A program made the translations under genes and the position numbers. From an uncultured Rhizobiaceae group bacterium (GTDB lineage Bacteria; Pseudomonadota; Alphaproteobacteria; Rhizobiales; Rhizobiaceae): DNA of 37,111 nt. The DNA is taken from NCBI GenBank assembly GCA_938009335.1, contig CALLHT010000194.1, positions 1 through 37,111 of the forward strand, read 5' to 3'. The notes under the pieces are model-generated. The model did no database searches. It was not told the origin of the DNA and saw only the letters and a list, made by a program, of their open reading frames with translations. Shown here piece by piece: positions 1-27,312 of the stretch; the stretch's first letter is position 1; every line of letters begins with the position of its first letter.

Positions 1-261
1 TTCCAACGAGCGCACAGCCTGAGTTTGAACGATTTCCTTGTTTGCATCCCGCCCAATCAGCCAAAGGCCCTTTACGTCCTCAATGTCGGATTCAATTGGT
101 TTGAAAATCGGATCAAGCGCTTGCTCGCGGTCGCTGTCAGAAGAGAGATAATTAAAAACCTCAAAATCAGTGCCGGTTTGTAGCTCCACCCCAAGATGCG
201 CAATCAGTTCTTTACAGCGATCAGCGACCTGCTGAACGTTTAATAAATTTGCGGTATGCAT
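1..261 (-). CDS. hypothetical protein, 5' portion only (runs off the window start)
   Basis: ATG at 261 on the minus strand opens an 87-codon frame with no stop down to position 1 (MHTANLLNVQQVADRCKELIAHLGVELQTGTDFEVF...). It is absent from the ORF track because it is truncated. No family recognised by eye. Confidence 0.35.
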   Translation of the reverse strand, partial: MHTANLLNVQQVADRCKELIAHLGVELQTGTDFEVFNYLSSDSDREQALDPIFKPIESDIEDVKGLWLIGRDANKEIVQTQAVRSLE

Positions 262-330
262 CACAAAAAAGCCCACACACTTTTTTGTCCCTTCGCTCCC
301 TGCATTTGCTTTGGGACTGTTTCGTTTAAC

Positions 331-1197
331 CTATGGCGAGAACTCCATAAGCAGCTCCTCGGATATCAAAGGTATTTCCCCCACATCCAAATTTCCGAAA
401 TCCAACTGGTTTGTCCTTGCTACCATTGCACCTAAAACGGGCTCGCCATCTGGCAAAAGCAGCGGCAGCAGAAGACGTTGGTAGTTGACTGTTTCCAGCT
501 CATCCCGACCATCTCGTGAATAGGCAGAGTGGATATGATCGTATCGGGGAGCACCCGATGTCATGACTGAGTCGTAAGCTGACAAAACAAACTTGTGATC
601 GAATAGGTTACTCTCATCATCACCAATGATTTTTCCAACAGCACTTTGTGCCCATGTCAGCCCAAGCCAAGAGACGAAAGAAGACTTTTGCCCCACAAAT
701 GTGCAAAGCCAGTTGCCGCGCGATTTGCGATAAATCAACAAATAGTCTCGCAGTGCCTCAAAGGCATCGCTTTCGAGGCGAGCCTGCGAACGGCACCATG
801 CAGAAAGCGAGGACGACAATAATGGGGTAGGGCAATCCCATACTTTCACCAATTCGTGCTGTTGTAGGTAGTAAACAAAATTATTTTCCGGAGAATTAAA
901 TTGGACCGATTTCAGTTCAGACGAAGATGCGTATTGATCTTCAACCCAGTCGTCCATGTTTGATACAAGCTCTTTTGCCCCCGAAATCCGTCTTTCGCCA
1001 ATATTAGTCAGATGGTATTGACGGTTTCTAACCTCAAAAAGCGGGCCTCCAGCGATGATTTCGAGGTCATCCAAGTGTCGACGAATGGTTTGTCTGGTGA
1101 AACCCAGGTGTTCAACAGCTTTCGATATGTTCAGGGTATCAGCCACTGAAACAAAAGAACGGAGCATTTCATAAATTACAGAAGGCGTTCTAGTCAT
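331..1197 (-). CDS. LysR-type HTH transcriptional regulator (N-terminal domain); C-terminal sensor domain not recognised
   Basis: The N-terminus LRSFVSVADTLNISKAVEHLGFTRQTIRRHLDDLEIIAGGPLFEVRNRQYHLTNIGE fits the LTTR winged-HTH pattern. The tracked start at 1254 is TTG; the in-frame ATG at 1197 (MTRTPSV...) places the HTH at the usual distance from the N-terminus. Confidence 0.65.
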   Translation of the reverse strand: MTRTPSVIYEMLRSFVSVADTLNISKAVEHLGFTRQTIRRHLDDLEIIAGGPLFEVRNRQYHLTNIGERRISGAKELVSNMDDWVEDQYASSSELKSVQFNSPENNFVYYLQQHELVKVWDCPTPLLSSSLSAWCRSQARLESDAFEALRDYLLIYRKSRGNWLCTFVGQKSSFVSWLGLTWAQSAVGKIIGDDESNLFDHKFVLSAYDSVMTSGAPRYDHIHSAYSRDGRDELETVNYQRLLLPLLLPDGEPVLGAMVARTNQLDFGNLDVGEIPLISEELLMEFSP

Positions 1198-1420
1198 GGT
1201 GTTCTTCAAATTCCGACCCAGCCCGCCAAGCTGAACAAATATGGTGGCGGGCAATAATAAAAATCACATCATTAGGGAAGAAATTTATAACAACTTAAAA
1301 GCGCAGTCCATACAAATACGTGTATTGGTCGAAAAAATATCGTTTAAGTTGTTAAATGTGGCGAAGGTTGACCTCAAAGCGGTTTCTGAACAGCTTTTAG
1401 AAAACGTCCGAGCGTTACTG

Positions 1421-3337
1421 TTAAGCCATTACAAAGCCGGCTTGTCGCAAGTCCATGGCGGAAAGCGCTTGCTTTACAATGCCTCCGCAATCGAGTTCCG
1501 CTTGCTCGATCATTCTGGCGGGAGACATTTGGTCCATGTATACATCAGGCATTGTCATCGTTCTGATTTTCAAACCTTTATCCAAAAGGCCTTGGCTTGC
1601 TAAATGATGTAAGACCATAGATCCAAAACCGCCGGTTGAACCCTCTTCTACCGTAATCAAGAGTGAGTGTTCACGCGCCAGTTGCTCGCACAGTTCAGTA
1701 TCCAGCGGTTTGGCGAAACGCGCATCAGCCACCGTTGTTGAAAGCCCATGGGTTTCAAGTTGATCTGCTGCGGCAAGGCAATCTTGTAATCTTGAACCGA
1801 AGGAAAGAAGCGCGATCTTGTCGCCTTCTTTAACAATGCGCCCTTTGCCTATTTCCAATATGCTACCGCGTTCCGGCATATCCACGCCAACGCCTTCTCC
1901 CCGAGGATACCGGAATGCAATGGGTCCCTCGTCAAAGGCCGCAGCGGTTGCGACCATGTGTTTAAGCTCTGCCTCATCCGATGCCGCCATGATGGTAAAG
2001 CCCGGAAGACAGCTTAAATAAGCAACGTCAAATGATCCCGCATGTGTTGCCCCGTCAGCGCCGACAAACCCTGCGCGATCAATTGGGAACCGCACGGGCA
2101 ATTGCTGGATAGATACATCATGCACGATCTGATCATAAGCGCGCTGGAGGAAGGTCGAGTAAATCGCGCAAAACGGCTTATACCCTTCGGACGCCATGCC
2201 CGCTGCAAACGTTACCGCGTGTTGTTCCGCAATGCCCACATCATAGGTGCGCTCCGGAAACGCTTTCTGAAAAATATCGATACCTGTACCAGAAGGCATG
2301 GCTGCTGTTATGCCGACCACGGTTTCGTCGTCTTCGGCTTCTTGCACAAGCGATTGGCCAAATACTTTGGTGTAGGACGGCACATTCGCAGCCGACTTTT
2401 GTTGCTTGCCATTGATTACGTTGAACTTGGAGACAGCATGCAATTTGCAGGAGGCTTCTTCGGCAGGCGCGTAGCCTTTACCTTTTTCTGTTACGATATG
2501 AAGAAGGATCGGACCTTGCTTGCTATCGCGTAGGTTTTCTAACAGGGGCACAAGCGCATCAAGATTATGGCCGTCAACGGGGCCGACATAATAGAAGCCC
2601 AGTTCTTCAAACATTGTGCCATTGTTGAAGAAATTCCGCGTGTATTCTTCCGTTTTACGTGCGCTTTCCTGAATAAACTTTGGCATGCGCTGATTGATCT
2701 GTTTTGCACCCTCACGAATAGAGCGATAGGTTTTACCTGATACAAGTCGAGCAAGGTAATGGCTCATTGCACCCGTTGGCGGCGCAATAGACATGTCGTT
2801 GTCGTTCAAAATCACGATCTGCCGCGCGTCCATGCCTCCGGCATTGTTCATGGCTTCATAGGCCATACCCGCTGTGATTGCACCATCACCGATAACCGAA
2901 ATCACATTGCGTTTTTCACCAGCAAGACGCGAGGCTTCAACCATGCCAAGGCCAGCGGAAATCGACGTCGAAGAATGCGCGGCACCGAATGGATCGTATT
3001 CACTTTCAGCGCGTTTGGTGAAGCCTGAGAGACCTTTTTCCTGCCGTAGTGTGCGAATGCGATCCCGACGACCTGTCAGAATCTTGTGTGGGTAACACTG
3101 ATGACCCACGTCCCAAATGATGCGGTCATGCGGGGTTTCAAACACATAGTGTAGCGCGACCGTAAGCTCCACGACACCCAGTCCGGCACCCAAATGTCCA
3201 CCGGTTACGGACACCGCATCGATCAGTTCTGTTCTCAATTCTTCTGCAAGAGTGGTAAGTTCTTGTCGCTCGCGCCGCCTCAAATCCGCTGGCACTTTTA
3301 TCTTATCCAGTAGTGGCGTTTTGGATTGCTGCGACAT
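1421..3337 (-). CDS. dxs: 1-deoxy-D-xylulose-5-phosphate synthase
   Basis: Typical Dxs N-terminus ([15 protein letters not shown]...[37 protein letters not shown]) and ThDP motif ([18 protein letters not shown]). ATG at 3337 (MSQQSK) is preceded by AAGGGAGG; the tracked start at 3364 is probably too long. Confidence 0.95.
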
Positions 3338-3389
3338 GGGACCTCCCTTACGTCCATACCTCAAACATAATAAGAATGGACAACTATTG

Positions 3390-3407
3390 TGTCCAAATTA
3401 TTAGACA
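3390..3407. promoter_or_regulatory. PpsR/CrtJ-type operator palindrome TGTCCAAATTATTAGACA (TGT-N12-ACA) upstream of dxs
   Basis: Exact TGT-N12-ACA in the bciB-dxs spacer. On the minus strand it overlaps a -10-like TAATAA (3398-3403) lying 16 nt from a -35-like TTGCCA (3420-3425). Confidence 0.6.
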
Positions 3408-3428
3408 TAATTTGATGTTTGGCAAGGC

Positions 3429-4640
3429 TTACTCGTGGTCGGATTTGCTTAGGCCATAGGATTCGGCAAGGTTCCAAACGTGTTCCGGGACCAAATTCTT
3501 GACTTTTGCCGGTTGTTTTCTGCGCAAGTGCAGAATGGTCTCCACTGCCTTCATCTCAACGCGTGTACGGGCAAATTCCAGTCCCTTTGGCCCGATCTTT
3601 GGCATAAGCCAGGCAACGATAGGGCGGACAAACTCCGGCATGGTTCGCAAGGGTAAGCCGTTTACAGAATTTTCCACATTGGCCTTGAAGCCCTCAACAT
3701 GTTTGCGGCGTTTACCAGAACTTCGCAAAGGCTTTGTTTCTAAATCATCGTTGAGAAGAGCAAGTAGTTCAGCGCCGCGTTCATTTCGCACGATCAACCA
3801 TTGGTCGCCTTCGCCCGCCATATATCCGACGGTGATGTCAGCAAGCGAGTTGGTGTAATCAACGCAAGTTTGGCAGGTGAGCGGGAAGAAGTCTCCTGGT
3901 AACTTGGAAATGGGGAGTTTCAGAAATGGAATTTCCTGCCTCCGGCCATCATCAAACCGCAGCTCGACCTTATAGTCAGCGCGAAATTCCAGATAGTTTA
4001 TGGTTTCTGGCTGTTCACTCAGCAGCGCCAGAAACTGGTGAAAATTCGCTGTTGTTGTGTTGTCTGAACATGGGGTGCCAATCACGTATAACCGTTCTAA
4101 CCCAAGTTCTTTTTCTAAGGATCGCAGCGCATAGACCTGACACGGTATGCCAATGAAGGCGATGCGTTTGTGTCCCGCTTCAATGGCAGGCTCTAACAGG
4201 GCAAGGCTTGGTGCGTATCCCATTCGCATACCACGGCAGTGCTTCATTTCTTCTGGATCGGTAACCAGAACGGGCTGCGGTTTCCATCGATCAAGTTCGT
4301 GTGGTTTGACCGCGATAACAGCATCGACTTTGCCGCTTTCTAAAAGCCTTTTGCCAATTTCAGACGTAATGCCAGTCCATTGCGCGCCTTCCCGATGGCG
4401 CTTTAACCCGGCGCGATGCATGGAAAGAAACGGACCAAAAAAGGCTTCGTCCGGTTGCAGTGAGGCGTTGCGAATACGCCCATGCACCTGCTTTTCCAAC
4501 TTTGGGTAATTGGGTTTAATAAATTGACATGCCTTGCCGCAGCGCTCAGGCTTTGACGTTCTGGATATCCCGCAATCGGTGCACATTGCCCGATGCGGCG
4601 CATCCGTTCCGGTTGGGTGATCTGTCAGCTTGTCTAACAT
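3429..4640 (-). CDS. bciB: FrhB/F420-hydrogenase-beta-like Fe-S flavoprotein, most likely ferredoxin-dependent 8-vinyl (bacterio)chlorophyllide reductase BciB
   Basis: N-terminal Cys cluster CTDCGISRTSKPERCGKAC, about 400 aa, FrhB-like fold, PGC context, divergent from bchI. ATG at 4640 (MLDKLTDHP...) is preferred over the tracked 4733, which would consume the divergent promoter. Confidence 0.65.
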   Translation of the reverse strand: MLDKLTDHPTGTDAPHRAMCTDCGISRTSKPERCGKACQFIKPNYPKLEKQVHGRIRNASLQPDEAFFGPFLSMHRAGLKRHREGAQWTGITSEIGKRLLESGKVDAVIAVKPHELDRWKPQPVLVTDPEEMKHCRGMRMGYAPSLALLEPAIEAGHKRIAFIGIPCQVYALRSLEKELGLERLYVIGTPCSDNTTTANFHQFLALLSEQPETINYLEFRADYKVELRFDDGRRQEIPFLKLPISKLPGDFFPLTCQTCVDYTNSLADITVGYMAGEGDQWLIVRNERGAELLALLNDDLETKPLRSSGKRRKHVEGFKANVENSVNGLPLRTMPEFVRPIVAWLMPKIGPKGLEFARTRVEMKAVETILHLRRKQPAKVKNLVPEHVWNLAESYGLSKSDHE

Positions 4641-4663
4641 GCCAACACTATAGGGCTTGTGTA

Positions 4664-4681
4664 TGTCAAAGAAAATAGACA
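4664..4681. promoter_or_regulatory. PpsR/CrtJ-type operator palindrome TGTCAAAGAAAATAGACA in the bciB/bchI divergent region
   Basis: Exact TGT-N12-ACA. For bchI it lies between a -35-like TTGTGT (4657-4662) and a -10-like CATAAT (4680-4685) at 17-nt spacing. Confidence 0.65.
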
Positions 4682-4735
4682 TAATAATATGTAATAAAAA
4701 TAGTGTTTTGATGTGCTGTGGAAGGGAAAGCATAC

Positions 4736-5773
4736 ATGACGCATAGAGCGGGAAACTATCCGTTTGTAGCGATTGTCGGGCAGGATGCGCTTAAGCTCGC
4801 AATCATTTTATGCGCAACAGATCAAAGTCTCGGCGGTGTTTTAGCACTAGGGGATCGCGGAACGGGTAAGACCACAGCGGTCCGAGCACTCGCAGCGCTT
4901 TTGCCTGAATTGGATACGGTCAAATCCTGCCCTTATCATTGTGATCCAGCAAACAAAGATGCCCAGTGCGAGGTTTGCGCGGGCAGTGATGCCCATGAAA
5001 TTACCGGTTTGGCTGCACCTGTGGTTGACCTGCCGCTCGGCGTTACAGAGGATCGTTTGCTGGGTGCGCTCGATCTGGAACGTGCGCTCGTTGATGGTGT
5101 AAAAGAATTTGAACCCGGATTGCTCGCAAAGGCCAATCGCGGGTTCCTCTATATTGATGAGGTCAACCTGCTTGAAGATCATCTGGTTGACGTGTTGCTA
5201 GACGTTGCCGCTTCCGGCTGGAACGTAGTCGAACGCGAAGGTCTGTCTGTAAAACACCCGGCGAAATTTGTTTTGGTCGGTAGTGGTAATCCAGAAGAAG
5301 GTGAGCTGCGGCCCCAATTGCTTGATAGATTTGGTCTTTCTGTCGATGTTGAGACGCCCTCAAACATCAAAGACCGCGTGGAAATTATTAAGCGTCGCGA
5401 TGCCTATGAACGTGACCCTAAAGCGTTTGTTAAAAAGTGGAAACAAGCCAATACAAAGCTTTCTAACCGGATTAGTAAAGCGCGCGACCTCCTACATTCT
5501 GTGCAAGTCGACGATCACATTCTGCAACTGATTGCAGAAATTTGCATCGCGCTGGGAACGGATGGTTTGCGCGGTGAATTGACGCTGATTAAAGCTGCGC
5601 GCGCGCATGCTGCCTGGAGGGGCGAAGTCTCTGTTCAGGTTTCTGACGTGAAAACCATGGCACCCCATGCGTTAAGTCATCGTCTTCGCCGTAATCCGCT
5701 GGATGATGCTCGTAGCTCGGTTCGGGTAGATCGCGTATTGGATGAGGTCTTCGCCAAGCGCGATGCCGCGTGA
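4736..5773 (+). CDS. bchI: Mg-protoporphyrin IX chelatase ATPase subunit I
   Basis: YPFVAIVGQDALKLAIILCATDQSLGGVLALGDRGTGKTTAVRALAALLPE (AAA+ Walker A). ATG at 4736 is preceded by GGAAGGGA; the tracked 4718 start is GTG. Confidence 0.95.
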   Translation: MTHRAGNYPFVAIVGQDALKLAIILCATDQSLGGVLALGDRGTGKTTAVRALAALLPELDTVKSCPYHCDPANKDAQCEVCAGSDAHEITGLAAPVVDLPLGVTEDRLLGALDLERALVDGVKEFEPGLLAKANRGFLYIDEVNLLEDHLVDVLLDVAASGWNVVEREGLSVKHPAKFVLVGSGNPEEGELRPQLLDRFGLSVDVETPSNIKDRVEIIKRRDAYERDPKAFVKKWKQANTKLSNRISKARDLLHSVQVDDHILQLIAEICIALGTDGLRGELTLIKAARAHAAWRGEVSVQVSDVKTMAPHALSHRLRRNPLDDARSSVRVDRVLDEVFAKRDAA

Positions 5774-11985: not shown

Positions 11986-13047
11986 CTATCTTCTACGCGG
12001 CATTCTAAACGGAAGCAGGCATCGCACCCAGTTGCGGGAAAAACGATCCAGATCTAAGCTCTCGTGAACAGAAACGAGACGTTCTCCAGAAATTTCAGAC
12101 TGAATTTGGCTGCGGGTATAAAAGGGTGTGTCTTCCAGCATCGAAAGCGTTTTGACACTCGTGGTTGCGTCCGCAAGCGTATGCCTACGAACCTGCCAAA
12201 TGGGCCCATTGGATAATCGGGTCCGTGGAGGAATAGCTTCTTCTTCAATGCTTCCATCTTTATTGATCGATAAAGAGAGCTGCTTGTTCGTTCCATTGCG
12301 CGTGAACGCATCATAGAGAATGCGTGCGCCGTTCTTGGTGTGAGCGCGTGACCAATCCCAATAGGAAAATCCTTCTTCCAGTGGTTCGTTTCCCCAGTTG
12401 CAATCCATATACCCATTGCCTGACCAGGACATAGACGGGTTGGAGAAATCCACTTCCACACGGCTCACGGCCCCAAACGGTTGCCAGTAATGCTTCCCAT
12501 TTTCATCAAGTTGAAACGGTTGATCAATCAGTGCAGATGGCCAGATTTTGATTGTGCCTGTCACTTTGCGTGGGATGGGATTAGCCCATTCATCCACATG
12601 AATGGTGAGGCATTGACCGTCCCATTCCAAGTTTGAGGGGCCCATTTGTAACGAATGCCGCTCTTGCTTAAGGGACGTTTTCCCGCGTTCAGTCAACGTC
12701 CAGCGTTTTCCAGCTTTGCCGTAAAGACCAACGTTGAATCCAATGTGGTTCTGGGGATCATCCCGCCCGGACCATGCATAGTAAGGCGAGAATACAGATC
12801 CAATCATCGCGATGATAGAGAACCCATTGTCGCCATCGTCACTGATTGCATCGGCATACCACCAGCCATACCCTTGAGGGGGAATCTCTAGGTCAAAGCG
12901 TGGTCCTTCATGATCTGCTCCGCGGCGATCATTCCCGAAAGCGTCGCCATTGGTACGCCCGCTCCCGGATGCACGCTCCCGCCCGCCAGATATAGGCCCG
13001 GTATCTTGGTTTTTGCTCCCTCGCGTTTGAACGAAGCCATCCATCCG
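11986..13047 (-). CDS. crtC: hydroxyneurosporene synthase (acyclic carotenoid 1,2-hydratase); start codon uncertain
   Basis: FDLEIPPQGYGWWYADAISDDGDNGFSIIAMIGSVFSPYYAW is the conserved CrtC N-terminal region. The only in-frame ATG/GTG/TTG upstream of it is ATG 13047, which is 160 nt inside crtD. Confidence 0.8.
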   Translation of the reverse strand, partial: RMDGFVQTRGSKNQDTGPISGGRERASGSGRTNGDAFGNDRRGADHEGPRFDLEIPPQGYGWWYADAISDDGDNGFSIIAMIGSVFSPYYAWSGRDDPQNHIGFNVGLYGKAGKRWTLTERGKTSLKQERHSLQMGPSNLEWDGQCLTIHVDEWANPIPRKVTGTIKIWPSALIDQPFQLDENGKHYWQPFGAVSRVEVDFSNPSMSWSGNGYMDCNWGNEPLEEGFSYWDWSRAHTKNGARILYDAFTRNGTNKQLSLSINKDGSIEEEAIPPRTRLSNGPIWQVRRHTLADATTSVKTLSMLEDTPFYTRSQIQSEISGERLVSVHESLDLDRFSRNWVRCLLPFRMPRRR

Positions 13048-14393
13048 TGTGAGGCCCTCCCGTAGAGCGCGCCGCCCGACCCCGGAAACAGGTTCTCGAA
13101 GTCCGATGGCTGTGTGATTGCCGACTGGTGGGGCGTTATGTTCAGTCCGCAATTCGAGAGGCTTCTTGTCATGTTGCGTTGGCATTGCTCCAACTCTCTT
13201 TCGTTAAGGCGGTTTACATCGCCATTTGCAGGTGAGTTGATAAGGCACATCAACCGTTCCGTTGGGTCTGAAAGCGTTCCATCATCGCCGCGATCCTGTG
13301 CGCACATATAAACTGTAGGCTGTGTAGGGGCGTAACCCCGCTCGAAGATGGAGTCGAATTCTTCGCGATAATCTTGCGAGAAAAAGACATTGTGCTGATG
13401 CAGTGGGAAGCCTTCCGCTTTGGCTTCCATTGACCAGGTTATTGCAGACAGAGATCTTTCCGCAGGCGCAACAGGTTTTGGTGTGCCATTGGAGGTTCCG
13501 ACGAATTCTTCGCTGAGTGCAGAAATATCTCCACAATAAAGGACACGCTTTGCCGTAAGCATTTCGCCTTTATCGGTAACGACACCACATACTTTGTGAC
13601 GGTCCATGAGAAGTCTAGCGACGGTTTCGCCTTGCCTGATCTCGGCCCCCTGTTCTTCTGCGAGCATTTCCATTGCCTGAGCAAGTTTATGCATTCCGCC
13701 GTTGATGAACCAAACACCTTCCTGTTCCACATGAGCGATTAGCATCAACGTTGCAGGCGCTTTATAGGGGGAAGACCCCACATAGGTCGCATACCTTCCA
13801 AATAACTGGCGAAGTCTGGGGTCTGGAAAATACGCGTGTAATTTTCCCATCAAAGACGTAAAGGGTTGTAACTGCCAAAGTTTCCGAACGTTCAACAGGC
13901 CTACGCGGCTGCCAAGTTGCAGCGGAGAAGGGCGTGAGGCACCAATGAATGTGTCTTTCAGCGAATTGAAGATGTTCTCAGAATCACGGCAAAATGTCTG
14001 AAAGCCTTCTGCACATTCCCGCCCGAAAAACGTTCCGATCTCATCGACAGTCTCTGCTTTTGAGGCGTGTAGATCGAAACTTCCTGAATCATCCCATGCG
14101 TGCCGCGCTAAAGTTTTTGCCTTTTTCAAATCGAGACATTGCTCGAAAGACTTTCCCGTTTTCCTGAACAGTTCATCGAAAACGTATTTCATTGTGAAAA
14201 CGGTTGGTCCGGAATCAATGCCACCAAGCGCGCTTGGCAGCTCGCGCATTTTCCCGCCGGGGTAAGGCTGACGCTCAATCAAGAGCGCATTCTCACCGCT
14301 GGAGGCCAAGGAAATTGCAGCGGCAAGACCGGCCATGCCGGCACCAATTATGATGGTTCGATTTTGTATCCTGACCTGTGGATCAAGTTTCAT
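12888..14393 (-). CDS. crtD: hydroxyneurosporene/methoxyneurosporene 3,4-desaturase
   Basis: RTIIIGAGMAGLAAAISLASSGENALLIERQPYPGGK (FAD fold), CrtI-family length, paired with crtC and divergent from crtE. Confidence 0.9.
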   Translation of the reverse strand: MKLDPQVRIQNRTIIIGAGMAGLAAAISLASSGENALLIERQPYPGGKMRELPSALGGIDSGPTVFTMKYVFDELFRKTGKSFEQCLDLKKAKTLARHAWDDSGSFDLHASKAETVDEIGTFFGRECAEGFQTFCRDSENIFNSLKDTFIGASRPSPLQLGSRVGLLNVRKLWQLQPFTSLMGKLHAYFPDPRLRQLFGRYATYVGSSPYKAPATLMLIAHVEQEGVWFINGGMHKLAQAMEMLAEEQGAEIRQGETVARLLMDRHKVCGVVTDKGEMLTAKRVLYCGDISALSEEFVGTSNGTPKPVAPAERSLSAITWSMEAKAEGFPLHQHNVFFSQDYREEFDSIFERGYAPTQPTVYMCAQDRGDDGTLSDPTERLMCLINSPANGDVNRLNERELEQCQRNMTRSLSNCGLNITPHQSAITQPSDFENLFPGSGGALYGRASHGWMASFKREGAKTKIPGLYLAGGSVHPGAGVPMATLSGMIAAEQIMKDHALT

Positions 14394-20132: not shown

Positions 20133-21589
20133 CCTTAATCCTCGACCACGACCGGGCAGGCGGCTATTGGGGCTCCGTTTATGCCTTCACAGCGATCAAG
20201 GGATTGCAGGTCATCATCGATGGTCCGGTGGGTTGCGAAAACCTTCCTGTCACGTCAGTCCTGCACTATACGGACGCATTACCACCGCATGAACTTCCAA
20301 TCGTTGTGACAGGTCTTGGCGAAGAAGAACTCGGCCAACATGGAACCGAAGGTGCAATGCGCCGTTCCCGCAACGTCCTTGATCCTGATCTTCCAGCAGT
20401 CGTTGTGACGGGCTCCATTGCTGAGATGATCGGCGGAGGCGTCACGCCGGAAGGTGCGAATATTCAACGCTTCTTGCCCCGCACGATCGATGAAGATCAA
20501 TGGCAATCGGCTGACCGGGCGCTGAAATGGCTATGGACAGAATTCGGACCCAAAAAGGGCCGCGTACCGGTTGCCAAAAAGCGCAAGGAAGGTGAGAAGC
20601 CGCGCGTCAATATTATTGGTCCGATCTATGGCACGTTTAACATGCCTTCTGATCTTGCCGAGATCCGTCGCTTGATTGAAGGCATTGGTGCTGAAGTAAA
20701 CATGACGTTCCCGCTTGGGTCTCATCTGGCTGATATCAACAAACTTTCAAACGCAGAAGCGAATGTCTGCTTATATCGTGAGTTTGGCCGTCTCTTATGT
20801 GAAGAACTTGATCGGCCTTATTTGCAAGCTCCAATGGGCATGCATTCGACCACAGCATTTTTGCGCTCATTGGGTGAAATTCTCGACCTTGATCCGGAAC
20901 CATTCATTGAGCAGGAAAAACACACAACGCTCAAACCGATGTGGGATTTGTGGCGCTCGGTAACTCAAGATTTTCTTGGAACTGCAAGTTTCGCGATTGT
21001 TGCAAACGAAACCTACACACGCGGCATGCGGAACTTCCTTGAAGAAGAGCTCGGAATGCCTTGCGCATTCGCAATATCCCGCAAAGCCGGTGTGAAAACA
21101 GATAATGACGAAGTTCAGCGTCTGATTGCCGAGACGTCGCCGATGATCGTGTTTGGCTCCTATAATGAGCGGATGTATTTGGCTGATCAGGGTTCGCGCG
21201 CGACCTTTATGCCAGCATCTTTCCCAGGAGCTGCAATCCGTCGACATACCGGAACACCGTTTATGGGAAATGCGGGCGCAAGCTATCTCATTCAAGAAGT
21301 CTGTAATTCACTCTTTGACGCACTGTTCCACATTCTGCCGCTCCAAAGCCAAATGGACGCAACAGCAGAAGCCAGCCCAACTGCTGCCAATAATACGATC
21401 GGTTGGGAAGATGCGGCGCGGACGAGGCTCGACGAAATTGTCGAACGCGAGCCGGTTTTAACCCGAATTTCTGCAGCAAAGCGCCTGCGTGACAAAGCAG
21501 AGCAGGATGCGCTGGCAGCCGGTGAAGAAGTTGTGACGCAAGAACGCGTTGAGCTTTCAGCAAAACAAATCATCAGGAGGGTTGCGTGA
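20129..21589 (+). CDS. bchZ: chlorophyllide a reductase subunit Z
   Basis: NifK/BchB-like ([38 protein letters not shown]). ATGA overlap with the bchY stop. Confidence 0.92.
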
Positions 21590-21631
21590 TGGGAAGCATG
21601 CATTCGCTCCACACAAAAGGGAGGACGACAT

Positions 21632-21844
21632 ATGTCTGATGTTTCGATCAACCAAGGCGTTGAGAGCGTCAAGATCAGCTGGGTTGAAAGCCTGATTTAC
21701 AAGGCTTTGGTCATCACATTGTTTTTTGTATCCGCTTTGGGTTTAGCGGTTGGCCGCTTGTTCGGCGCCAAGGGGCAGGGCCCATTGTGGCAGGAAGCGC
21801 GAGAGGCTGCTTATGCGGTCGCAGGATACGCGTTCAAACATTGA
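21632..21844 (+). CDS. pufQ: PufQ-like small membrane protein
   Basis: 70 aa with one central TM segment (LIYKALVITLFFVSALGLAVG) and a ...GPLWQEAREA... tail. It occupies the position between bchZ and pufB, with AAGGGAGGA before the ATG. The call rests on position and architecture. Confidence 0.55.
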   Translation: MSDVSINQGVESVKISWVESLIYKALVITLFFVSALGLAVGRLFGAKGQGPLWQEAREAAYAVAGYAFKH

Positions 21845-21853
21845 GTTTTAGAG

Positions 21854-21938
21854 ATTTCTCCACCTAACCCCTGGAGAGATACAGGTTCATTCGAACCAGC
21901 CCGGCCGCGGGGTTCGTCGCGGTAACGGCCGAAAGGCC
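21854..21938 (+). promoter_or_regulatory. structured pufQ-pufB intercistronic leader (several stem-loops)
   Basis: Hairpins at 21854-21880 (9 bp including one G-U), 21884-21897 (ggttc/gaacc), 21905-21922 (ccgcg/cgcgg) and 21927-21938 (ggcc-GAAA-ggcc tetraloop), followed by AGGAGG (21946-21951) and the pufB ATG. Confidence 0.5.
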
Positions 21939-21958
21939 AACGACTAGGAGGTTGTATT

Positions 21959-22177
21959 ATGGCTAGTCAAGATGGGGGTTCCATGACTGGTTTGACCAGT
22001 GGTGAAGCCCGTGAGTTCCACCGGATATTCATGAAGAGCACCATTGCCTTCACTGGATGGGCCTTTGCCGCGCACGCTCTTGTAGCAATGTGGCGGCCTT
22101 GGTTTTGGTACGATGGAAGCAACCCGGTTGTGTCAAGTTCGCTTGACGTGATCAAAACGCTGCCATTTTTCGGTTAA
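21959..22177 (+). CDS. pufB: light-harvesting 1 beta polypeptide with an unusual C-terminal extension
   Basis: GLTSGEAREFHRIFMKSTIAFTGWAFAAHALVAMWRPWF is a canonical LH1-beta sequence. A further 23 residues (WYDGSNPVVSSSLDVIKTLPFFG) follow before the stop. Confidence 0.9.
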   Translation: MASQDGGSMTGLTSGEAREFHRIFMKSTIAFTGWAFAAHALVAMWRPWFWYDGSNPVVSSSLDVIKTLPFFG

Positions 22178-22191
22178 GGGAGAAATGAACC

Positions 22192-22374
22192 ATGTATAAG
22201 ATCTGGCTCTTTTTTGACCCACGCCGCGTTCTGGTAGCGCTTGCAGTATTTCTGTTCACTCTGGCAATTTTGATTCATTTCATTTTGCTCAGCACAGACA
22301 GATACAACTGGTTGGATACTAACCAAATCTCTTCTGTTCAGACAGAAGCAATGGTTGAACGTCTCATATCCTGA
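22192..22374 (+). CDS. pufA: light-harvesting 1 alpha polypeptide
   Basis: [41 protein letters not shown] is a canonical LH1-alpha sequence. The AAGGGAGA SD overlaps the pufB stop. Confidence 0.92.
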
Positions 22375-22390
22375 GGCTGATCCGGCTTTC

Positions 22391-22424
22391 TCGGCAGGCG
22401 GAAGCATTTTCTTCTGCCTGCCGA
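22391..22424 (+). promoter_or_regulatory. pufA-pufL intercistronic stem-loop (mRNA stabiliser / partial terminator)
   Basis: tcggcaggcggaag-cattt(t)-cttctgcctgccga: a 14-bp stem with one G-U pair, in the same position as the decay-blocking hairpin known in Rhodobacter puf mRNA. Confidence 0.7.
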
Positions 22425-22459
22425 AATCAAGAATTTTATAACCTTTTGGAGACTGGGCC

Positions 22460-23353
22460 ATGGCCTTATTAAGTTTCGAACGAAAATATCGTGTCCGCGG
22501 GGGCACGCTCTTGGGAGGTGACCTGTTCGATTTTTGGGCGGGGCCTTTTTATGTCGGGTTTTTCGGGGTTTTGACGATCTTTTTCGCAACCCTTGGAACT
22601 GCCCTGATCATATATGGTGCGGCCCTCGGGCCAACTTGGAATATTTGGCAGATCAGCATTAATCCGCCATCTGATGAATATGGCTTAGGATTAGCGCCTA
22701 TGGCCGAAGGTGGTCTATGGCAGATCATAACATTCTGCGCCACGTTTGCCTTTATAAGTTGGGCACTGCGAGAGGTGGAAATCTGCCGAAAGCTCGGTAT
22801 GGGATATCATGTTCCGGTGGCGTTCAGTTTCGCTATTCTGGCGTTTGTATCGCTGAATATCTTCAGACCCATATTAATGTACATCAAAGATGGTGGTGAT
22901 AGCGGCTGGTCACATGGCTTTCCCTACGGGATCTATTCTCACCTCGAATGGGTGAATAACGTTGGGTATGCCTATGGCAATTTCCACTACAATCCTGCGC
23001 ATATGATTGCGATCACCTTCTTCTTTACAACAACGCTGGCCTTGGCACTGCATGGTGGCCTTGTTCTGTCATCCACCAACCCGGGTGCCGGGCAGGAAGT
23101 TAAAACTCCTGAACATGAGGACACCTATTTCCGTGACTTTATCGGATATTCGGTCGGCACGCTCGGCATTCACCGTGTGGGCTTGTTCCTTGCACTTAGT
23201 GCAGTCTTCTGGAGTGCGGTCTGTATCATCATCTCAGGTCCATTCTGGGAAGATGCATGGAGCGACTGGTGGACATGGTGGTTGGAACTGCCGGTATTCC
23301 CGCAAGATGATCTCGTTCGCGAAATTGGCGACCTGCCATATCTCGACGAATAA
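22460..23353 (+). CDS. pufL: photosynthetic reaction centre L subunit
   Basis: [36 protein letters not shown]...[33 protein letters not shown]. Confidence 0.97.
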
Positions 23354-23367
23354 GGAGGAGATGAAAC

Positions 23368-24309
23368 ATGAAAAATTACCAAAACATCTTCACGGCCATT
23401 CAAGTGCAAGGGCCTCCGGGCCAGGGCATCCCTCTTCCAAGAGGCGATGAAGCGAGAATTGGTGAGGGCAAGCTCAACTACTGGATTGGTAAATTTGGTA
23501 ATGCCCAGATCGGTCCGTTGTATCTGGGTACGCTGGGTCTGATTTCGCTGGTCACATTCCTGATTGCGTTCAACATCATCGGCTTGAACTATCTCGCGCA
23601 AGTGGGCTGGGATCCGGTGCAATTTGTCCGCCAGCTCTTCTGGCTATCACTTGACCCGCCAGCGGAGAAATATGGACTTCAGGTACTACCACCCTTGCAA
23701 GAGGGCGGTTGGTATATGATCACTGGCTTCTTCTTGACGGTCAGTGTTCTGACCTGGTGGTTGCGTACCTATCGCCGTGCGAAGTCATTGGGTCTAGGCA
23801 TGCACATCCCAATTGCGTTTGCATCCGCTATCTTCCTGTTCCTGGTATTGGGCTTTATTCGTCCATTGCTGATGGGGAGTTGGTCTCATGGTGTTCCATA
23901 TGGTGTGTTCTCGCATCTGGATTGGACGAACAACTTTTCGCTCATTTACGGCAACCTGTTCTACAATCCATTCCATGCACTATCGATTGCGTTCCTTTAT
24001 GGTTCTGCATTGTTGTTCGCCATGCATGGCGCGACCATTCTCGCTGTCACACGGTATGGCGGCGAGCGTGAGATCGAGCAGATTACAACACGCGGAACAG
24101 CTTCAGAACGTGCAGCTTTATTCTGGCGCTGGACCATGGGCTTTAACGCGACCATGGAATCGATTCACAGATGGGCATGGTGGTTTGCGATGCTAACCAC
24201 TTTGACTGGCGGTATCGGCATCTTGCTCACAGGCACGGTTGTTGATGACTGGTCAGCTTGGGCAATCAAGCACGGTGTACTGCATGAAAGTGGAACGAAT
24301 ATCCGTTAA
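23368..24309 (+). CDS. pufM: photosynthetic reaction centre M subunit
   Basis: [13 protein letters not shown]...[33 protein letters not shown]...[28 protein letters not shown]. Confidence 0.97.
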
Positions 24310-24337
24310 GGTTACAGGATAATCTCAATCCAGAAAG

Positions 24338-24365
24338 AAGGGCGCTGATTAAGCGCCCTTTTTCG
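24338..24365. terminator. rho-independent terminator ending the puf operon (possibly bidirectional, also serving the convergent SCP2 gene)
   Basis: aagggcgct-gatta-agcgccctt: a perfect 9-bp GC-rich stem followed by TTTTTCGTT. On the opposite strand it is followed by a T-rich CTTCTTTCT. Confidence 0.75.
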
Positions 24366-24405
24366 TTATAAGGATAAGGGGTGATGTTGTTTGTGAGACT
24401 GTGGT

Positions 24406-24783
24406 CTAATTCAATTCAGGCGGGGCAAAGAACTGATGCAGCTTGATGGCTAGAGATATCGGCCCTTCATAACGTAGCTTACGTCTAAAAAATGCTTCCT
24501 GCCCGGTGAGACGCCCCATGACCATGTCGACATAGGTTTGCGCCGACATTTTCAAGGTAAGCGTTGGGTTTGCATGAATTCCCTGCTCTAGAGAACAAGT
24601 GTCACTTTTGATGGTCGCAAAGAAGTCTGCTCCGTCATCGCCTGATAGTTTGAACTGCAGAATTGCGTTAAGACCACGCGCAGCCTCAGGCCGAAATCGC
24701 GATGGCATGCCTGAAATAATTTGCTCAATGGTTGGATCTGAAATCACTGTTAAAGCTCTGAAATTATGTCGAAACACAGTCAT
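24406..24783 (-). CDS. SCP2 (sterol/lipid carrier) domain protein
   Basis: 125 aa with the SCP2-like pattern ...ILQFKLSGDDGADFFATIKSDTCSLEQG...TLKMSAQTYVDMVMGRLTGQEAFFRRKLRYEGPISLAIKLHQFF. No clear SD. Confidence 0.65.
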   Translation of the reverse strand: MTVFRHNFRALTVISDPTIEQIISGMPSRFRPEAARGLNAILQFKLSGDDGADFFATIKSDTCSLEQGIHANPTLTLKMSAQTYVDMVMGRLTGQEAFFRRKLRYEGPISLAIKLHQFFAPPELN

Positions 24784-24841
24784 TTATGTATAGCACTGAT
24801 AAGGGATTTCTACAAAAATCAGACGAAAAATTTGCCAAATT

Positions 24842-25474
24842 ATGCTAAGAAAACCTATGGAAAGTTTTCGATTATTTCTGGCATTGGTTATTCTTTATAT
24901 CATGCCAATCGTGATTACCTTTTGGGTCGTCATTCATGCGTTCTCGGATACTTGGCGCAATACCAATCCGATGCGAGCTTACGCTTTTGCCGGTCTTTGC
25001 ATCGTGCTTGTTACGGCGTTTTGTTACAGCCTTCAGAACATCCTTCTTGGTTCTGATTTGGGAAATTCTCTCGCGCTTTTTCTAGTTGGCGCGGCTATCT
25101 ATCTAGCTTCTTGGTTTCTGTGGCGACCTGTTAAACACCATCTTGATTTCAAAACATTTGCAGGCATACCGGAAGTCACCAATGAGAAGATCAGCCTCAT
25201 CACCGATGGCCCATTCGCGATGGTGCGGCACCCGCGATATTTAATGGTTTGGATCGGAGTACTGGGCTGGTGCCTGATGGCGAATTATTCCGGCGCGTAT
25301 GCAATCGGGATCGCGTCTATGTTTGGCCTGTTGATCATCGTTAATCTAGAAGAGCGCGATCTGATCAAGCGGTTCGGCGACGAATACCGCGCATATCAGA
25401 AAAATGTACCACAGCTCATCCCGACGCGTGATGGCGTGCGTGACTTTATTTCAAATAATTTTCGAAAGCAGTAG
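24842..25474 (+). CDS. ICMT/PEMT-family integral-membrane SAM-dependent methyltransferase
   Basis: About five TM segments and the family hallmark LITDGPFAMVRHPRYLMVWIGVLG...NLEERDLIKRFGDEYRAYQKNVPQLIP. The start could be ATG 24842 or ATG 24857. Confidence 0.7.
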   Translation: MLRKPMESFRLFLALVILYIMPIVITFWVVIHAFSDTWRNTNPMRAYAFAGLCIVLVTAFCYSLQNILLGSDLGNSLALFLVGAAIYLASWFLWRPVKHHLDFKTFAGIPEVTNEKISLITDGPFAMVRHPRYLMVWIGVLGWCLMANYSGAYAIGIASMFGLLIIVNLEERDLIKRFGDEYRAYQKNVPQLIPTRDGVRDFISNNFRKQ

Positions 25475-25476
25475 AG

Positions 25477-26082
25477 TTAGAAATCGAGCTCTGGGAACTT
25501 GCTCACATATATGCGGAACCAGGGCGTGAACTTCTCGGGCGTATCCATAATCTCCTGGTGCAGATCTATCGCTTTAATCCAACGAATTTCAGCAACCTCG
25601 TCAGGGTTCAAATCATAGTCCAGCGTGTGCTTATCTGCCTCTGCGCGGAACATGTGAACGCGCTCGCGCTCCCATAAACCATTTCCCACATCTGCAGAAT
25701 ATTCGACGATACGCTTTGCTTGCGTATCAATAGCAATACCCAGTTCTTCATCAAGGCGACGGGCAACCGCATCATGAATATCCTCGCCCATATGCGGATG
25801 CGTGCAACATGTATTCGCCCATTGGCCGCCACAATGATATTTGCAATCAGCTCGGCGTTGGATGAGCAACTCGTCGCCATCGAAGATGAAGACCGACAAG
25901 GCTAAATGGTGAACGCCTTTGATATGGGCTTCGATCTTTTCTATCGGAAACAACGTACCATCAGCAGAGATCCCTGGGATCATAATGGCCGGATCACTGG
26001 GTGCAAGGGTGCAGCTAGACTGCGCATCAATGTCAGGTCCGTCTGCTGCATCCGGTGTTAGATAGAGAACATCGTCAAGCAT
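25477..26082 (-). CDS. idi: isopentenyl-diphosphate delta-isomerase, type 1 (Nudix)
   Basis: HHLALSVFIFDGDELLIQRRADCKYHCGGQWANTCCTHPHMGEDIHDAVARRLDEELGI. The alternative ATG at 25983 (MIPGISADGTLFPIEKIEAH) gives the usual length. Confidence 0.88.
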   Translation of the reverse strand: MLDDVLYLTPDAADGPDIDAQSSCTLAPSDPAIMIPGISADGTLFPIEKIEAHIKGVHHLALSVFIFDGDELLIQRRADCKYHCGGQWANTCCTHPHMGEDIHDAVARRLDEELGIAIDTQAKRIVEYSADVGNGLWERERVHMFRAEADKHTLDYDLNPDEVAEIRWIKAIDLHQEIMDTPEKFTPWFRIYVSKFPELDF

Positions 26083-26097
26083 CGCTTTAACCGCTCT

Positions 26098-27312
26098 CTA
26101 CGCAACCGCACGGGAAAGCGCGCATTGTGACCAAAGCTCGGACAATGCGCTGACGAGTTTTTCAATATCACTTTCTGTATGAACCGGCGAAGGTGTAATG
26201 CGCAAACGCTCAGTCCCTTGGGGGACTGTAGGATAGTTGATCGGCTGCACATAGATGCCGTGATTATCCAGAAGTAGATCAGAGATAAATTTACACTTTT
26301 TCGCATCACCCACCATGACCGGAACAATGTGGCTGTCGTTCAACATGTGAGGTACGCCAACTGCATCCAGCTTTTCGCGAAGTAGGCGAACGTTGCGGCG
26401 TTGTTGCTGACGCTCAATCTCGCTTTGCTTCAGGTGCTTGATTGAGGCCGTTGCGCCCGCGGCAAGCGCCGGGGGTAGGGCAGTTGAGAAAATAAAGCCG
26501 GAAGCAAATGAACGCACAAAGTCGATCAGGTTTGCAGAACCAGCGATGTATCCGCCCATCACGCCATATGCTTTACCAAGCGTACCTTGAATGACGGTTA
26601 TACGGTCCATCAGACCTTCACGCTCAGCGACACCGCCACCGCGCGGACCATAAAGGCCAACGGCGTGAACTTCATCGAGATAGGTCATTGCTCCATATTC
26701 TTCACAGACATCGCAAATCTCGGCAATCGGGGCAATGTCGCCATCCATCGAATAAACGGATTCAAAGGCAACAATGCGTGCAGCATCCGGATCTGTATCG
26801 GCAAGGCGTTTTGCCAGGTCTTCCACATCATTGTGCTTCCAGATCGTCTTTTGAGCTCGGCTATGGCGAATGCCTTCGATCATGGACGCGTGGTTATCAG
26901 CATCCGACAGGATCACCGCATTCGGCAGGCGCGCACCCAGTGTTGAAAGTGCCGCCCAGTTGGCCACATAGCCAGATGTCAACAAAAGTGCTGCCTCTTT
27001 TGCGTGCAGGTCAGCGAGTTCTTCCTCAAGCACAACGTGATAATGGTTTGTACCCGAAATGTTGCGCGTGCCTCCAGCACCTGCACCACTTTTATCGAGA
27101 GCGTCTTTCATCGCGTTCACAGTATTAGGGTGTTGTCCCATGCCCAGATAGTCGTTGGAACACCAAACCGTAACATCTTTGATGCGGCCGTCCACATGGC
27201 GTTTAGCCCGGGGGAATTGTCCTTTTGCTCGCTCCAGATCCGCGAAAACCCGGTAATTTCCAGCTTCGCGCAATGCGTCCAATTCTTGCTCGAAGTGCTT
27301 CTCGAAATTCAT
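26098..27312 (-). CDS. hemA: 5-aminolevulinate synthase
   Basis: [36 protein letters not shown]...[14 protein letters not shown]...[12 protein letters not shown] (PLP lysine region). Confidence 0.95.

Follow-up and report, generated by a model that had tools for sequence, protein, structure and literature searches.

The stretch of DNA analysed here, 37,111 nucleotides from contig CALLHT010000194.1 of an uncultured Rhizobiaceae group bacterium (assembly GCA_938009335.1), is hereafter called the window. Two adjacent, divergent genes in it, located inside a photosynthesis gene cluster (PGC), encode an SCP2-fold lipid-binding protein and an integral-membrane methyltransferase (MT) of the ICMT/Ste14 type. 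The pair is a reduced two-gene version of a wider four-gene module, which is repeatedly kept inside or beside the PGCs of aerobic phototrophic Proteobacteria. The initial annotation, made from the letters of the sequence alone, missed the wider module and proposed a carrier-plus-methyltransferase module that modifies or delivers a carotenoid, quinone or membrane lipid. A conserved, adjacent and co-inherited unit with a strong association to PGCs was indeed found; a carotenoid, quinone or lipid would be a candidate target only, and the module was also found outside PGCs. Our preferred reading, to which we give somewhat less than an even chance, is a coupled SCP2 carrier and MT acting on a lipophilic, probably isoprenoid-derived molecule. 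The two genes, given here as their longest open reading frames (ORFs), are the following.

24406-24783, minus strand: SCP2-fold lipid-binding protein, longest ORF 125 amino acids (aa) from the ATG at 24783 (ORF list, Pfam, AlphaFold2 (AF2) model)
24842-25474, plus strand: ICMT/Ste14-type integral-membrane methyltransferase dependent on S-adenosylmethionine (SAM), longest ORF 210 aa (ORF, Pfam, fold)

Conservation of the pair and of a four-gene module

Protein searches returned close full-length relatives only, 59 for MT and 41 for SCP2, many of them on shared contigs, and 20 loci came from scanning GTDB with each species represented by one genome. Eighteen of the 20 were located within 10 kb of bch, puf or puh genes. 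The gene order bchZ-pufLM / SCP2 MT / idi-hemA-puhE-acsF, identical to that of the window, was found in 15 of them, all from Hyphomicrobiales: metagenome-assembled genomes (MAGs) of the 'Rhizobiaceae group', Pseudahrensia aquimaris and Ahrensia sp. R2A130. Several further loci of this type came from metagenome contigs. The survey for puf and puh genes near the pair in related genomes, suggested in the initial annotation, thus came out in favour of the association. Both ORFs were intact in all 15 species loci, SCP2 and MT were adjacent in every lineage having SCP2, and neighbour-joining trees of the two contained the same major groups. In Ahrensia sp. R2A130 (L021, 9564-10600) SCP2 was inverted relative to all other loci, so adjacency was kept while orientation changed. 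The result was an SCP2-MT operon with an 8-nt gap, placed directly downstream of pufLM and co-directional with it, after a G+C-rich hairpin without a clear U-run. Nonsynonymous divergence (dN) was far below synonymous divergence (dS) for both genes, indicating purifying selection; since dS was saturated in most comparisons, no finer statement is made. The conserved catalytic residues were kept throughout the clade, although its PufM proteins are down to about 81% identical.

In all lineages outside the window's clade, two further genes came after MT, either overlapping by 8 nt or 1 nt apart. The first encodes one polypeptide of about 950-980 aa, an N-terminal CoxS-like 2x[2Fe-2S] domain joined to the large subunit of a molybdenum hydroxylase (MoH), and the second a CoxM-like FAD-binding subunit (FAD in the list below). 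MoH scored best against models for archaeal glyceraldehyde (aldehyde) dehydrogenase and for the large subunit of CO dehydrogenase, in each case below the cutoff, and within its family it is closest to members that oxidise aldehydes. It carries the motif AYRGAGR, which we take to be the signature of form-II CoxL enzymes. At loci with MoH, SCP2 was usually upstream and divergent from MT-MoH-FAD. Mapping of the window's PGC proteins onto all 63 loci (L numbers) gave six junction types in or beside PGCs, and these came from two clades that are deeply separated. Relative to a PGC share of about 1% of the genome, an estimate from typical PGC and genome sizes, the module is found in PGCs more often than expected.

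Type A: pufM / SCP2 MT / idi hemA; the window's type, no molybdenum enzyme within 10 kb
Type B: puhE hemA / SCP2 MT MoH FAD; L031, L032, L062
Type C: crtI bchO / MT MoH FAD / bchD bchI; L029, L030, L036, L037, L042
Type D: crtE crtC / SCP2 MT MoH FAD / puhE puhC puhB puhA; L046, L048, L049, L051, L056, L057
Type E: SCP2 MT MoH FAD / crtB crtI bchO; L050, L055
Type F: bchO bchD bchI ... idi-like, mmsAB-like / SCP2 MT MoH FAD; Hyphomonadaceae/Henriciella MAGs L022, L025, L026
Non-PGC copy: L008/L016, beside sox genes (soxYZA, flavocytochrome c sulfide dehydrogenase)
Non-PGC copy: L033/L034, beside a TetR gene and an atu-type (acyclic terpene utilisation) cluster
Non-PGC copies: L028; L053
Non-PGC copies, probably: the group L054/L058/L060/L061

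Other neighbours of the non-PGC copies were 2-oxoglutarate (2OG)-oxygenase, amidohydrolase and phosphoenolpyruvate (PEP)-utilising genes. In a HMMER search of 1.84 billion representatives, the MT subfamily comprised six clusters at 50% identity with scores of at least 230 bits. Below this value the scores dropped to 196 and merged into a large ICMT-like continuum. The same search gave 111 proteins at E <=1e-30 and 19,514 at E <=1e-3. A tblastn search of MT against 72,556 plasmids gave no match. MT relatives at 33-38% identity were set outside the subfamily; the gene context was read for P0162 only (36% identity, the next clade out), which lies near metH and PhoU without SCP2 or a molybdenum enzyme. 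Because of this unrelated neighbourhood the more distant relatives were treated as non-members.

The genes upstream of the pair in Hyphomonadaceae were considered as crtI and crtB, which was rejected, as they encode an aldehyde dehydrogenase and a 3-hydroxyisobutyrate dehydrogenase and are probably mmsAB. In the same MAGs (L022, L025 and L026, from Henriciella sp. and other Hyphomonadaceae) positions 1-5500, which lie further upstream, held homologues of bchI (about 57% identity), bchD, bchO and crtB, so these genomes appear to carry photosynthesis genes; to our knowledge, Hyphomonadaceae are not noted for phototrophy. In two type C loci (L029, 2620-5964, and L030, 1345-4689) three genes were located between crtB and crtD, in the same PGC as the MT-MoH operon. 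They encode a cytochrome P450 with terpene oxygenases as its nearest relatives, an ATP-grasp protein and a DUF2306-like membrane protein, and this trio may tailor carotenoids.

The two proteins

The SCP2 assignment agreed between methods. The protein matched Pfam SCP2 (PF02036) above the gathering threshold (E 3.6e-13, 50.2 bits, cutoff 21.3), and a profile of 28 homologues matched solved SCP2 and MFE-2 SCP2-like domains at E 2e-10. Its AF2 model (pLDDT 90.9) matched SCP2, SCP2-like and alkylsulfatase C-terminal domains with TM scores of 0.7-0.82 and probability 1.0. This is the alpha/beta fold of SCP2 proteins, in which a five-stranded sheet and helices form a hydrophobic tunnel. The sequence is without a hydrophobic N-terminal signal, which suggests a cytoplasmic location. 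While the fold given in the initial annotation stands, the length of 125 aa probably does not: homologues begin with M-x-DPTI and the product in the source record is 113 aa, which makes the GTG at 24747 the probable true start. One beta-strand cysteine of the protein, C63 in the 125-aa numbering, was invariant in 28 of 28 homologues; we do not know of such an invariant cysteine as typical of SCP2 domains.

For MT, both Pfam models named in the initial annotation scored above threshold, PEMT (PF04191) as the best Pfam match with 33.7 bits (cutoff 25, E 5.2e-8) and ICMT (PF04140) as a borderline pass with 24.5 bits (cutoff 24). An MT profile aligned over its full length to Ma-ICMT (4a2n) at E 6.7e-9. 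The AF2 model (pLDDT 92) has five transmembrane helices, in line with the estimate of about five segments, and its top PDB fold match was again 4a2n (probability 1.0, TM score 0.50-0.53). The hallmark RHPRY (residues 124-128), pointed out at first reading, and the EE at 165-166 were invariant in 40 homologues including those of the window's lineage. Beyond RHPxY...EE, 30 or more residues were invariant, type A included. The superfamily was thus correctly named, and again the length probably needs revision, from 210 to 205 aa; the true start is probably the ATG at 24857, because homologues begin with MExF or MDEF.

Membership in three curated families was considered and rejected. The best NCBIfam match was isoprenylcysteine methyltransferase (NF040696), where MT reached 54.6 bits against a cutoff of 160, and it is not placed in this protein-S-isoprenylcysteine O-methyltransferase equivalog. 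Methanethiol S-methyltransferase MddA (NF045656) was matched with 43.5 bits against 270, and lipid A Kdo2 1-phosphate O-methyltransferase LmtA (TIGR04571) with 21.7 bits against 325.

Intergenic signals and surrounding genes

The remainder of the window was assigned to a complete-looking PGC by family profile searches, with dxs, a BciB-like gene, bchIDO, crtIB, tspO, crtCDEF, bchCXYZ, puf, puh and bchMLH; no ubi gene of the window came up in these searches. The pair is flanked by pufL and pufM on one side and by idi, hemA, puhE and acsF on the other. Both ORFs and the flanks pufM and idi-hemA-puhE are as the initial annotation described them. In 23368-24405, no pufC or pufX-like ORF was found 3' of pufM. 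The features around the two genes are as follows.

23368-24309, plus strand: pufM, upstream flank (NCBIfam TIGR01115, 515 bits)
24335-24363, no strand assigned: 12-pair hairpin, G+C-rich, with an A-run on one side and a T-run on the other (folding z -3.1 on the plus strand, -4.4 on the minus strand)
24748-24856, no strand assigned: AT-rich divergent intergenic spacer, about 109 bp long, or 58 bp between the longest ORFs
25472-25479, no strand assigned: junction of two convergent stop codons, that of MT reaching to 25474 and that of idi lying from 25477 onwards
25477-26082, minus strand: idi, type 1 isopentenyl diphosphate (IPP) isomerase, downstream flank (NCBIfam NF002995, 127.8 bits, cutoff 127), followed by hemA, puhE and acsF

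The revised starts of SCP2 and MT extend the spacer from the 58 bp first given (24784-24841) to about 109 bp. The composition was described correctly, the 58-bp core having about 29% G+C against about 50% in the window. In relatives the distance between conserved residues near each start ranged from about 80 to 215 bp. Two further statements on the spacer held as they were made: there is no clear Shine-Dalgarno sequence in it and no TGT-N12-ACA (PpsR/CrtJ) operator, with 12 such sites elsewhere in the window, several of them in promoter regions. Those of the type TGTC-N10-GACA were located at 3390, 4664, 8764, 14463 and 16527, in the intergenic or junction regions dxs/BciB-like, BciB-like/bchI, bchO/crtI, crtD/crtE and crtF/bchC, respectively; no PpsR/CrtJ-like box was found near the SCP2/MT pair or in the idi-hemA intergenic region. 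A consensus scan for sigma-70 promoters and terminators gave nothing above shuffle expectation, with one weak sigma-70-like match on the minus strand. An Rfam search of 21500-26200 at E <=0.1 gave no RNA family.

Two sequence patterns were noted in the spacers of the compared loci. Type A spacers (the window, L001, L004, L009, L010, L038, L039 and L041) share a loose TATAyCAT...(16-20 nt)...GCAAAA, which could be the pair's own promoter or 5' region. A palindrome, TTGACAG-N6-CTGTC(C/T)AC, was observed about 15-40 nt 5' of the MT start in L022, L025, L026, L028, L029, L031, L036, L042 and L062. It was kept in all alpha-type loci with the molybdenum hydroxylase after MT, whatever their neighbours, and not in the window or other type A spacers, and it differs from the PpsR box. 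This palindrome may function as an operator, or as the promoter of a near-leaderless mRNA.

The hairpin at 24335-24363 marks the end of the puf operon, is common to the convergent SCP2 gene, and is probably a bidirectional terminator between pufM and SCP2. It was missed by the consensus terminator scan and found by direct folding, probably because the stem extension absorbs the T-run. On the other side, the stops of MT and idi are only 2 bp apart, which leaves no room for a terminator, and in L001 and L006 MT and idi were called as overlapping genes. If transcription of the long puh-hemA-idi unit ran on past idi, the RNA would be antisense to MT and would contain SCP2 in the sense direction. 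Two further observations concern other parts of the cluster. An ORF resembling a LysR-type regulator, with weak N-terminal helix-turn-helix (HTH) matches, lies at the cluster edge beside dxs (331-1254, minus strand). The longest crtC ORF (11986-13185, minus strand) overlaps crtD (12888-14393, minus strand) by about 300 nt; its family match begins at residue 124, which places the true crtC start well downstream.

Possible roles and comparison with known systems

According to the reading that we prefer, SCP2 would extract or present a hydrophobic, probably isoprenoid-derived metabolite of the photosynthetic membrane, and the membrane MT would methylate a polar group of it, most likely a carboxylate, giving a methyl ester. 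Where present, the molybdenum enzyme would make that carboxylate from a lipophilic aldehyde. The active site of MT is expected to face the cytoplasm, where the soluble SCP2 would be. We infer one shared lipophilic molecule because of the SCP2 fold, the membrane location of MT and the linkage of the two genes. In ICMT enzymes the methyl group goes to a carboxylate of an isoprenylated substrate, at the interface between membrane and cytosol; by analogy with this chemistry, and because of the partnership with an enzyme from the xanthine-oxidase family, which is a family of aldehyde oxidisers, the methyl acceptor is probably a carboxylate. An isoprenoid-derived substrate is made probable by the PGC context, by the atu neighbourhood of L033 and by the precedent of a molybdenum-dependent geranial-to-geranylate dehydrogenase documented in P. 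aeruginosa (PMC4097962). The pair may also have some role in photosynthesis.

A more specific proposal, which we regard as quite improbable, is a pathway not described so far, for pigment tailoring or photoprotection in aerobic anoxygenic phototrophs, that consists of SCP2, MT and form-II CoxSL/CoxM. In it, SCP2 would pull a lipophilic isoprenoid aldehyde (for example an apocarotenal, a carotenoid aldehyde, phytenal or geranylgeranial) from the photosynthetic membrane, the molybdenum enzyme would convert it to the acid, and the membrane MT would cap the acid as a methyl ester. The window's lineage would run a shortened pathway in which a pre-formed acid is methylated.

Several results weigh against a coupled carrier and methyltransferase serving the photosynthetic membrane. 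No TGT-N12-ACA box was present in the spacer of the window or in the spacers of the 21 related loci checked. Linkage to the carrier is not constant, as type C has no SCP2 in the 20-kb neighbourhood. In the window's lineage no molybdenum hydroxylase was found within 10 kb on either side, so the aldehyde-to-acid step is missing there or encoded elsewhere. Copies without a PGC gene in the available flanks occurred in at least 4-5 lineages, and most phototrophs in the large representative search were without the MT subfamily; confined to a few lineages as it is, the subfamily would be an accessory to photosynthesis and not a core part. The dN of MT against its closest relative was 0.245, whereas idi and puhE both had 0.096 and hemA 0.03; the MT value is 2.5 to 8 times that of neighbouring PGC genes. 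Finally, the ICMT/PEMT superfamily also includes S-, N- and phosphate-O-methylation (MddA, OlsG and LmtA), and carboxyl methylation is not guaranteed.

As the strongest alternative, the genes could be hitch-hiking accessories whose function, housekeeping or catabolic, has nothing to do with photosynthesis (for instance, to oxidise and methylate a lipophilic compound from the environment), carried along as PGCs move and rearrange as blocks. We hold this to be unlikely on balance, yet a serious contender. The sox, atu and 2OG-oxygenase/amidohydrolase/PEP-utilising neighbourhoods outside PGCs agree with it, as do the missing PpsR box, the pair's own divergent promoter region and insulation by a hairpin, the many phototrophs without the subfamily, and the fact that PGCs already hold loosely related genes such as tspO, dxs and idi. 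However, six PGC junctions in two deep clades are hard to obtain by chance if a PGC is about 1% of the genome, and they imply retention through repeated rearrangement, for which reason passengers were rated lower than a functional module. The conservation of catalytic residues across a clade with PufM down to about 81% identity, and the Ahrensia pair directly downstream of and co-directional with pufLM, are likewise difficult to reconcile with mere passengers.

The remaining explanations concern the function of MT itself, and each is contradicted by at least one tested feature. As a lipid N-methyltransferase of the PEMT/OlsG type, MT would supply the photosynthetic membrane with phosphatidylcholine or methylated aminolipids, with SCP2 as a phospholipid transfer protein. 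PEMT was the best Pfam match, and SCP2 proteins bind phospholipids and fatty acids, but the PEMT and ICMT models overlap on the common C-terminal cofactor region, the full-length alignment and top fold match were to Ma-ICMT, and the best NCBIfam match was isoprenylcysteine methyltransferase. The coupling to an aldehyde-oxidase-like molybdenum enzyme would also be left unexplained, and we consider this function very unlikely. Translational coupling of MT to the molybdenum enzyme could instead point to a membrane anchor or electron-acceptor dock for the hydroxylase, with SCP2 as a CoxG-like tether and the pair in the window's lineage as a decaying remnant from which the molybdenum enzyme was lost; CO-dehydrogenase clusters use the lipid-binding CoxG for membrane association, and the type A MT evolves faster than its neighbours. 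Against an anchor stand the invariant SAM-binding RHPxY...EE and the other invariant residues in type A, the intact ORFs in all its species loci, and dN far below dS, which make it slightly less probable still than a lipid N-methyltransferase. Least probable in our judgement is an MddA-like thiol S-methyltransferase (methanethiol or sulfide to dimethyl sulfide (DMS) or MeSH), serving sulfur detoxification in marine aerobic phototrophs with SCP2 as an incidental neighbour. MddA was the second-best NCBIfam match, one locus lies beside soxYZA and flavocytochrome c sulfide dehydrogenase genes, and many relatives came from marine samples. Nevertheless, the score was far under the cutoff, the sox neighbourhood was found in one lineage only, and a lipid carrier and molybdenum hydroxylase partner would be pointless for small volatile thiols.

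The module would represent a new tailoring or detoxification step in aerobic anoxygenic phototrophy if its target is indeed a pigment, a quinone or a lipid in the photosynthetic membrane. It would then further provide a concrete setting for tests of two old questions, namely which substrates are used by bacterial ICMT-family methyltransferases and which by form-II CoxL-type enzymes, and a pigment-tailoring pathway would provide the first physiological substrate for the latter. Genetic tests are feasible in Pseudahrensia aquimaris CCUG 60023, a cultured carrier with assembly GCA_042676045.1, and in Ahrensia sp. R2A130, which has been sequenced. Passenger genes would be an example of non-photosynthetic cargo maintained through PGC rearrangements. 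PGCs are among the best-studied bacterial gene clusters. In the searchable literature, neither the SCP2/MT pair nor the module of four genes was found described as an accessory that recurs in PGCs: in a Citromicrobium paper an aldehyde oxidase/xanthine dehydrogenase gene appears merely among the numbered genes of a figure legend, and the pair goes unmentioned in a Rhizobiaceae preprint. Both proteins belong to known superfamilies as new members, and the combination of SCP2, ICMT-like MT and form-II CoxSL/CoxM is undescribed in that literature.

With Ma-ICMT (4a2n) and Ste14, MT has in common the superfamily, the fold, the five-helix architecture and the RHPxY-hydrophobic-EE cofactor motif, invariant in the MT subfamily, and the profile alignment to Ma-ICMT is full length. 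As in these enzymes, the expected substrate of MT is lipophilic, and its methylation would take place where membrane and cytosol meet. On the other hand, identity to Ma-ICMT is only about 19% and the TM score about 0.5, the equivalog score is far from its cutoff, and motifs conserved in MT, a HLDFKTFAGxPE loop and the N-terminal PxVIxFW..H, are unaligned to conserved positions of Ma-ICMT. We know of no CaaX prenylation pathway in these bacteria, which argues against a prenylated protein as the MT substrate. MddA, LmtA and PEMT/OlsG are fellow bacterial members of the superfamily acting on small or lipid substrates. They are weak family-level matches to MT, which falls far below the curated cutoffs of MddA and LmtA, and the gene neighbourhoods differ.

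UbiJ and UbiT, brought forward in the initial annotation, follow a similar logic, in which a protein of the same SCP2 fold holds a polyprenyl lipid for tailoring enzymes including O-methyltransferases. The comparison is sound as an analogy of mechanism, whereas membership as a UbiJ/UbiT-type ubiquinone accessory factor was rejected. UbiJ was a distant structural match (E 6e-5 to 4e-4, ranks 36-45, 10-14% identity), behind classical SCP2, MFE-2 SCP2-like and alkylsulfatase C-terminal domains, and there is no linkage to ubi genes. The partners of UbiJ and UbiT are the soluble class I enzymes UbiG and UbiE, while the partner here is an integral-membrane ICMT-type enzyme.

The form-II CoxSLM enzymes are molybdenum hydroxylases abundant in marine bacteria, with unknown substrates. 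In relatives of the window MT is co-transcribed with an enzyme that bears their AYRGAGR motif and with a CoxM-like FAD subunit, and the CoxG of CO dehydrogenase clusters parallels SCP2 as a co-encoded lipid-binding accessory protein. The differences are that the large subunit carries the CoxS-like domain as an N-terminal fusion, that the partners are an ICMT-like MT and SCP2 and not CoxDEFG, and that the window is without the molybdenum enzyme gene. Among PGC genes, the closest parallel in status is given by the accessory genes tspO, idi, dxs, bchO, puhE and lhaA. The pair and the four-gene module are not described beside them in the PGC papers searchable, but these genes, of which idi, dxs and tspO occur in the window, are likewise non-core and recur in the PGCs of particular lineages.

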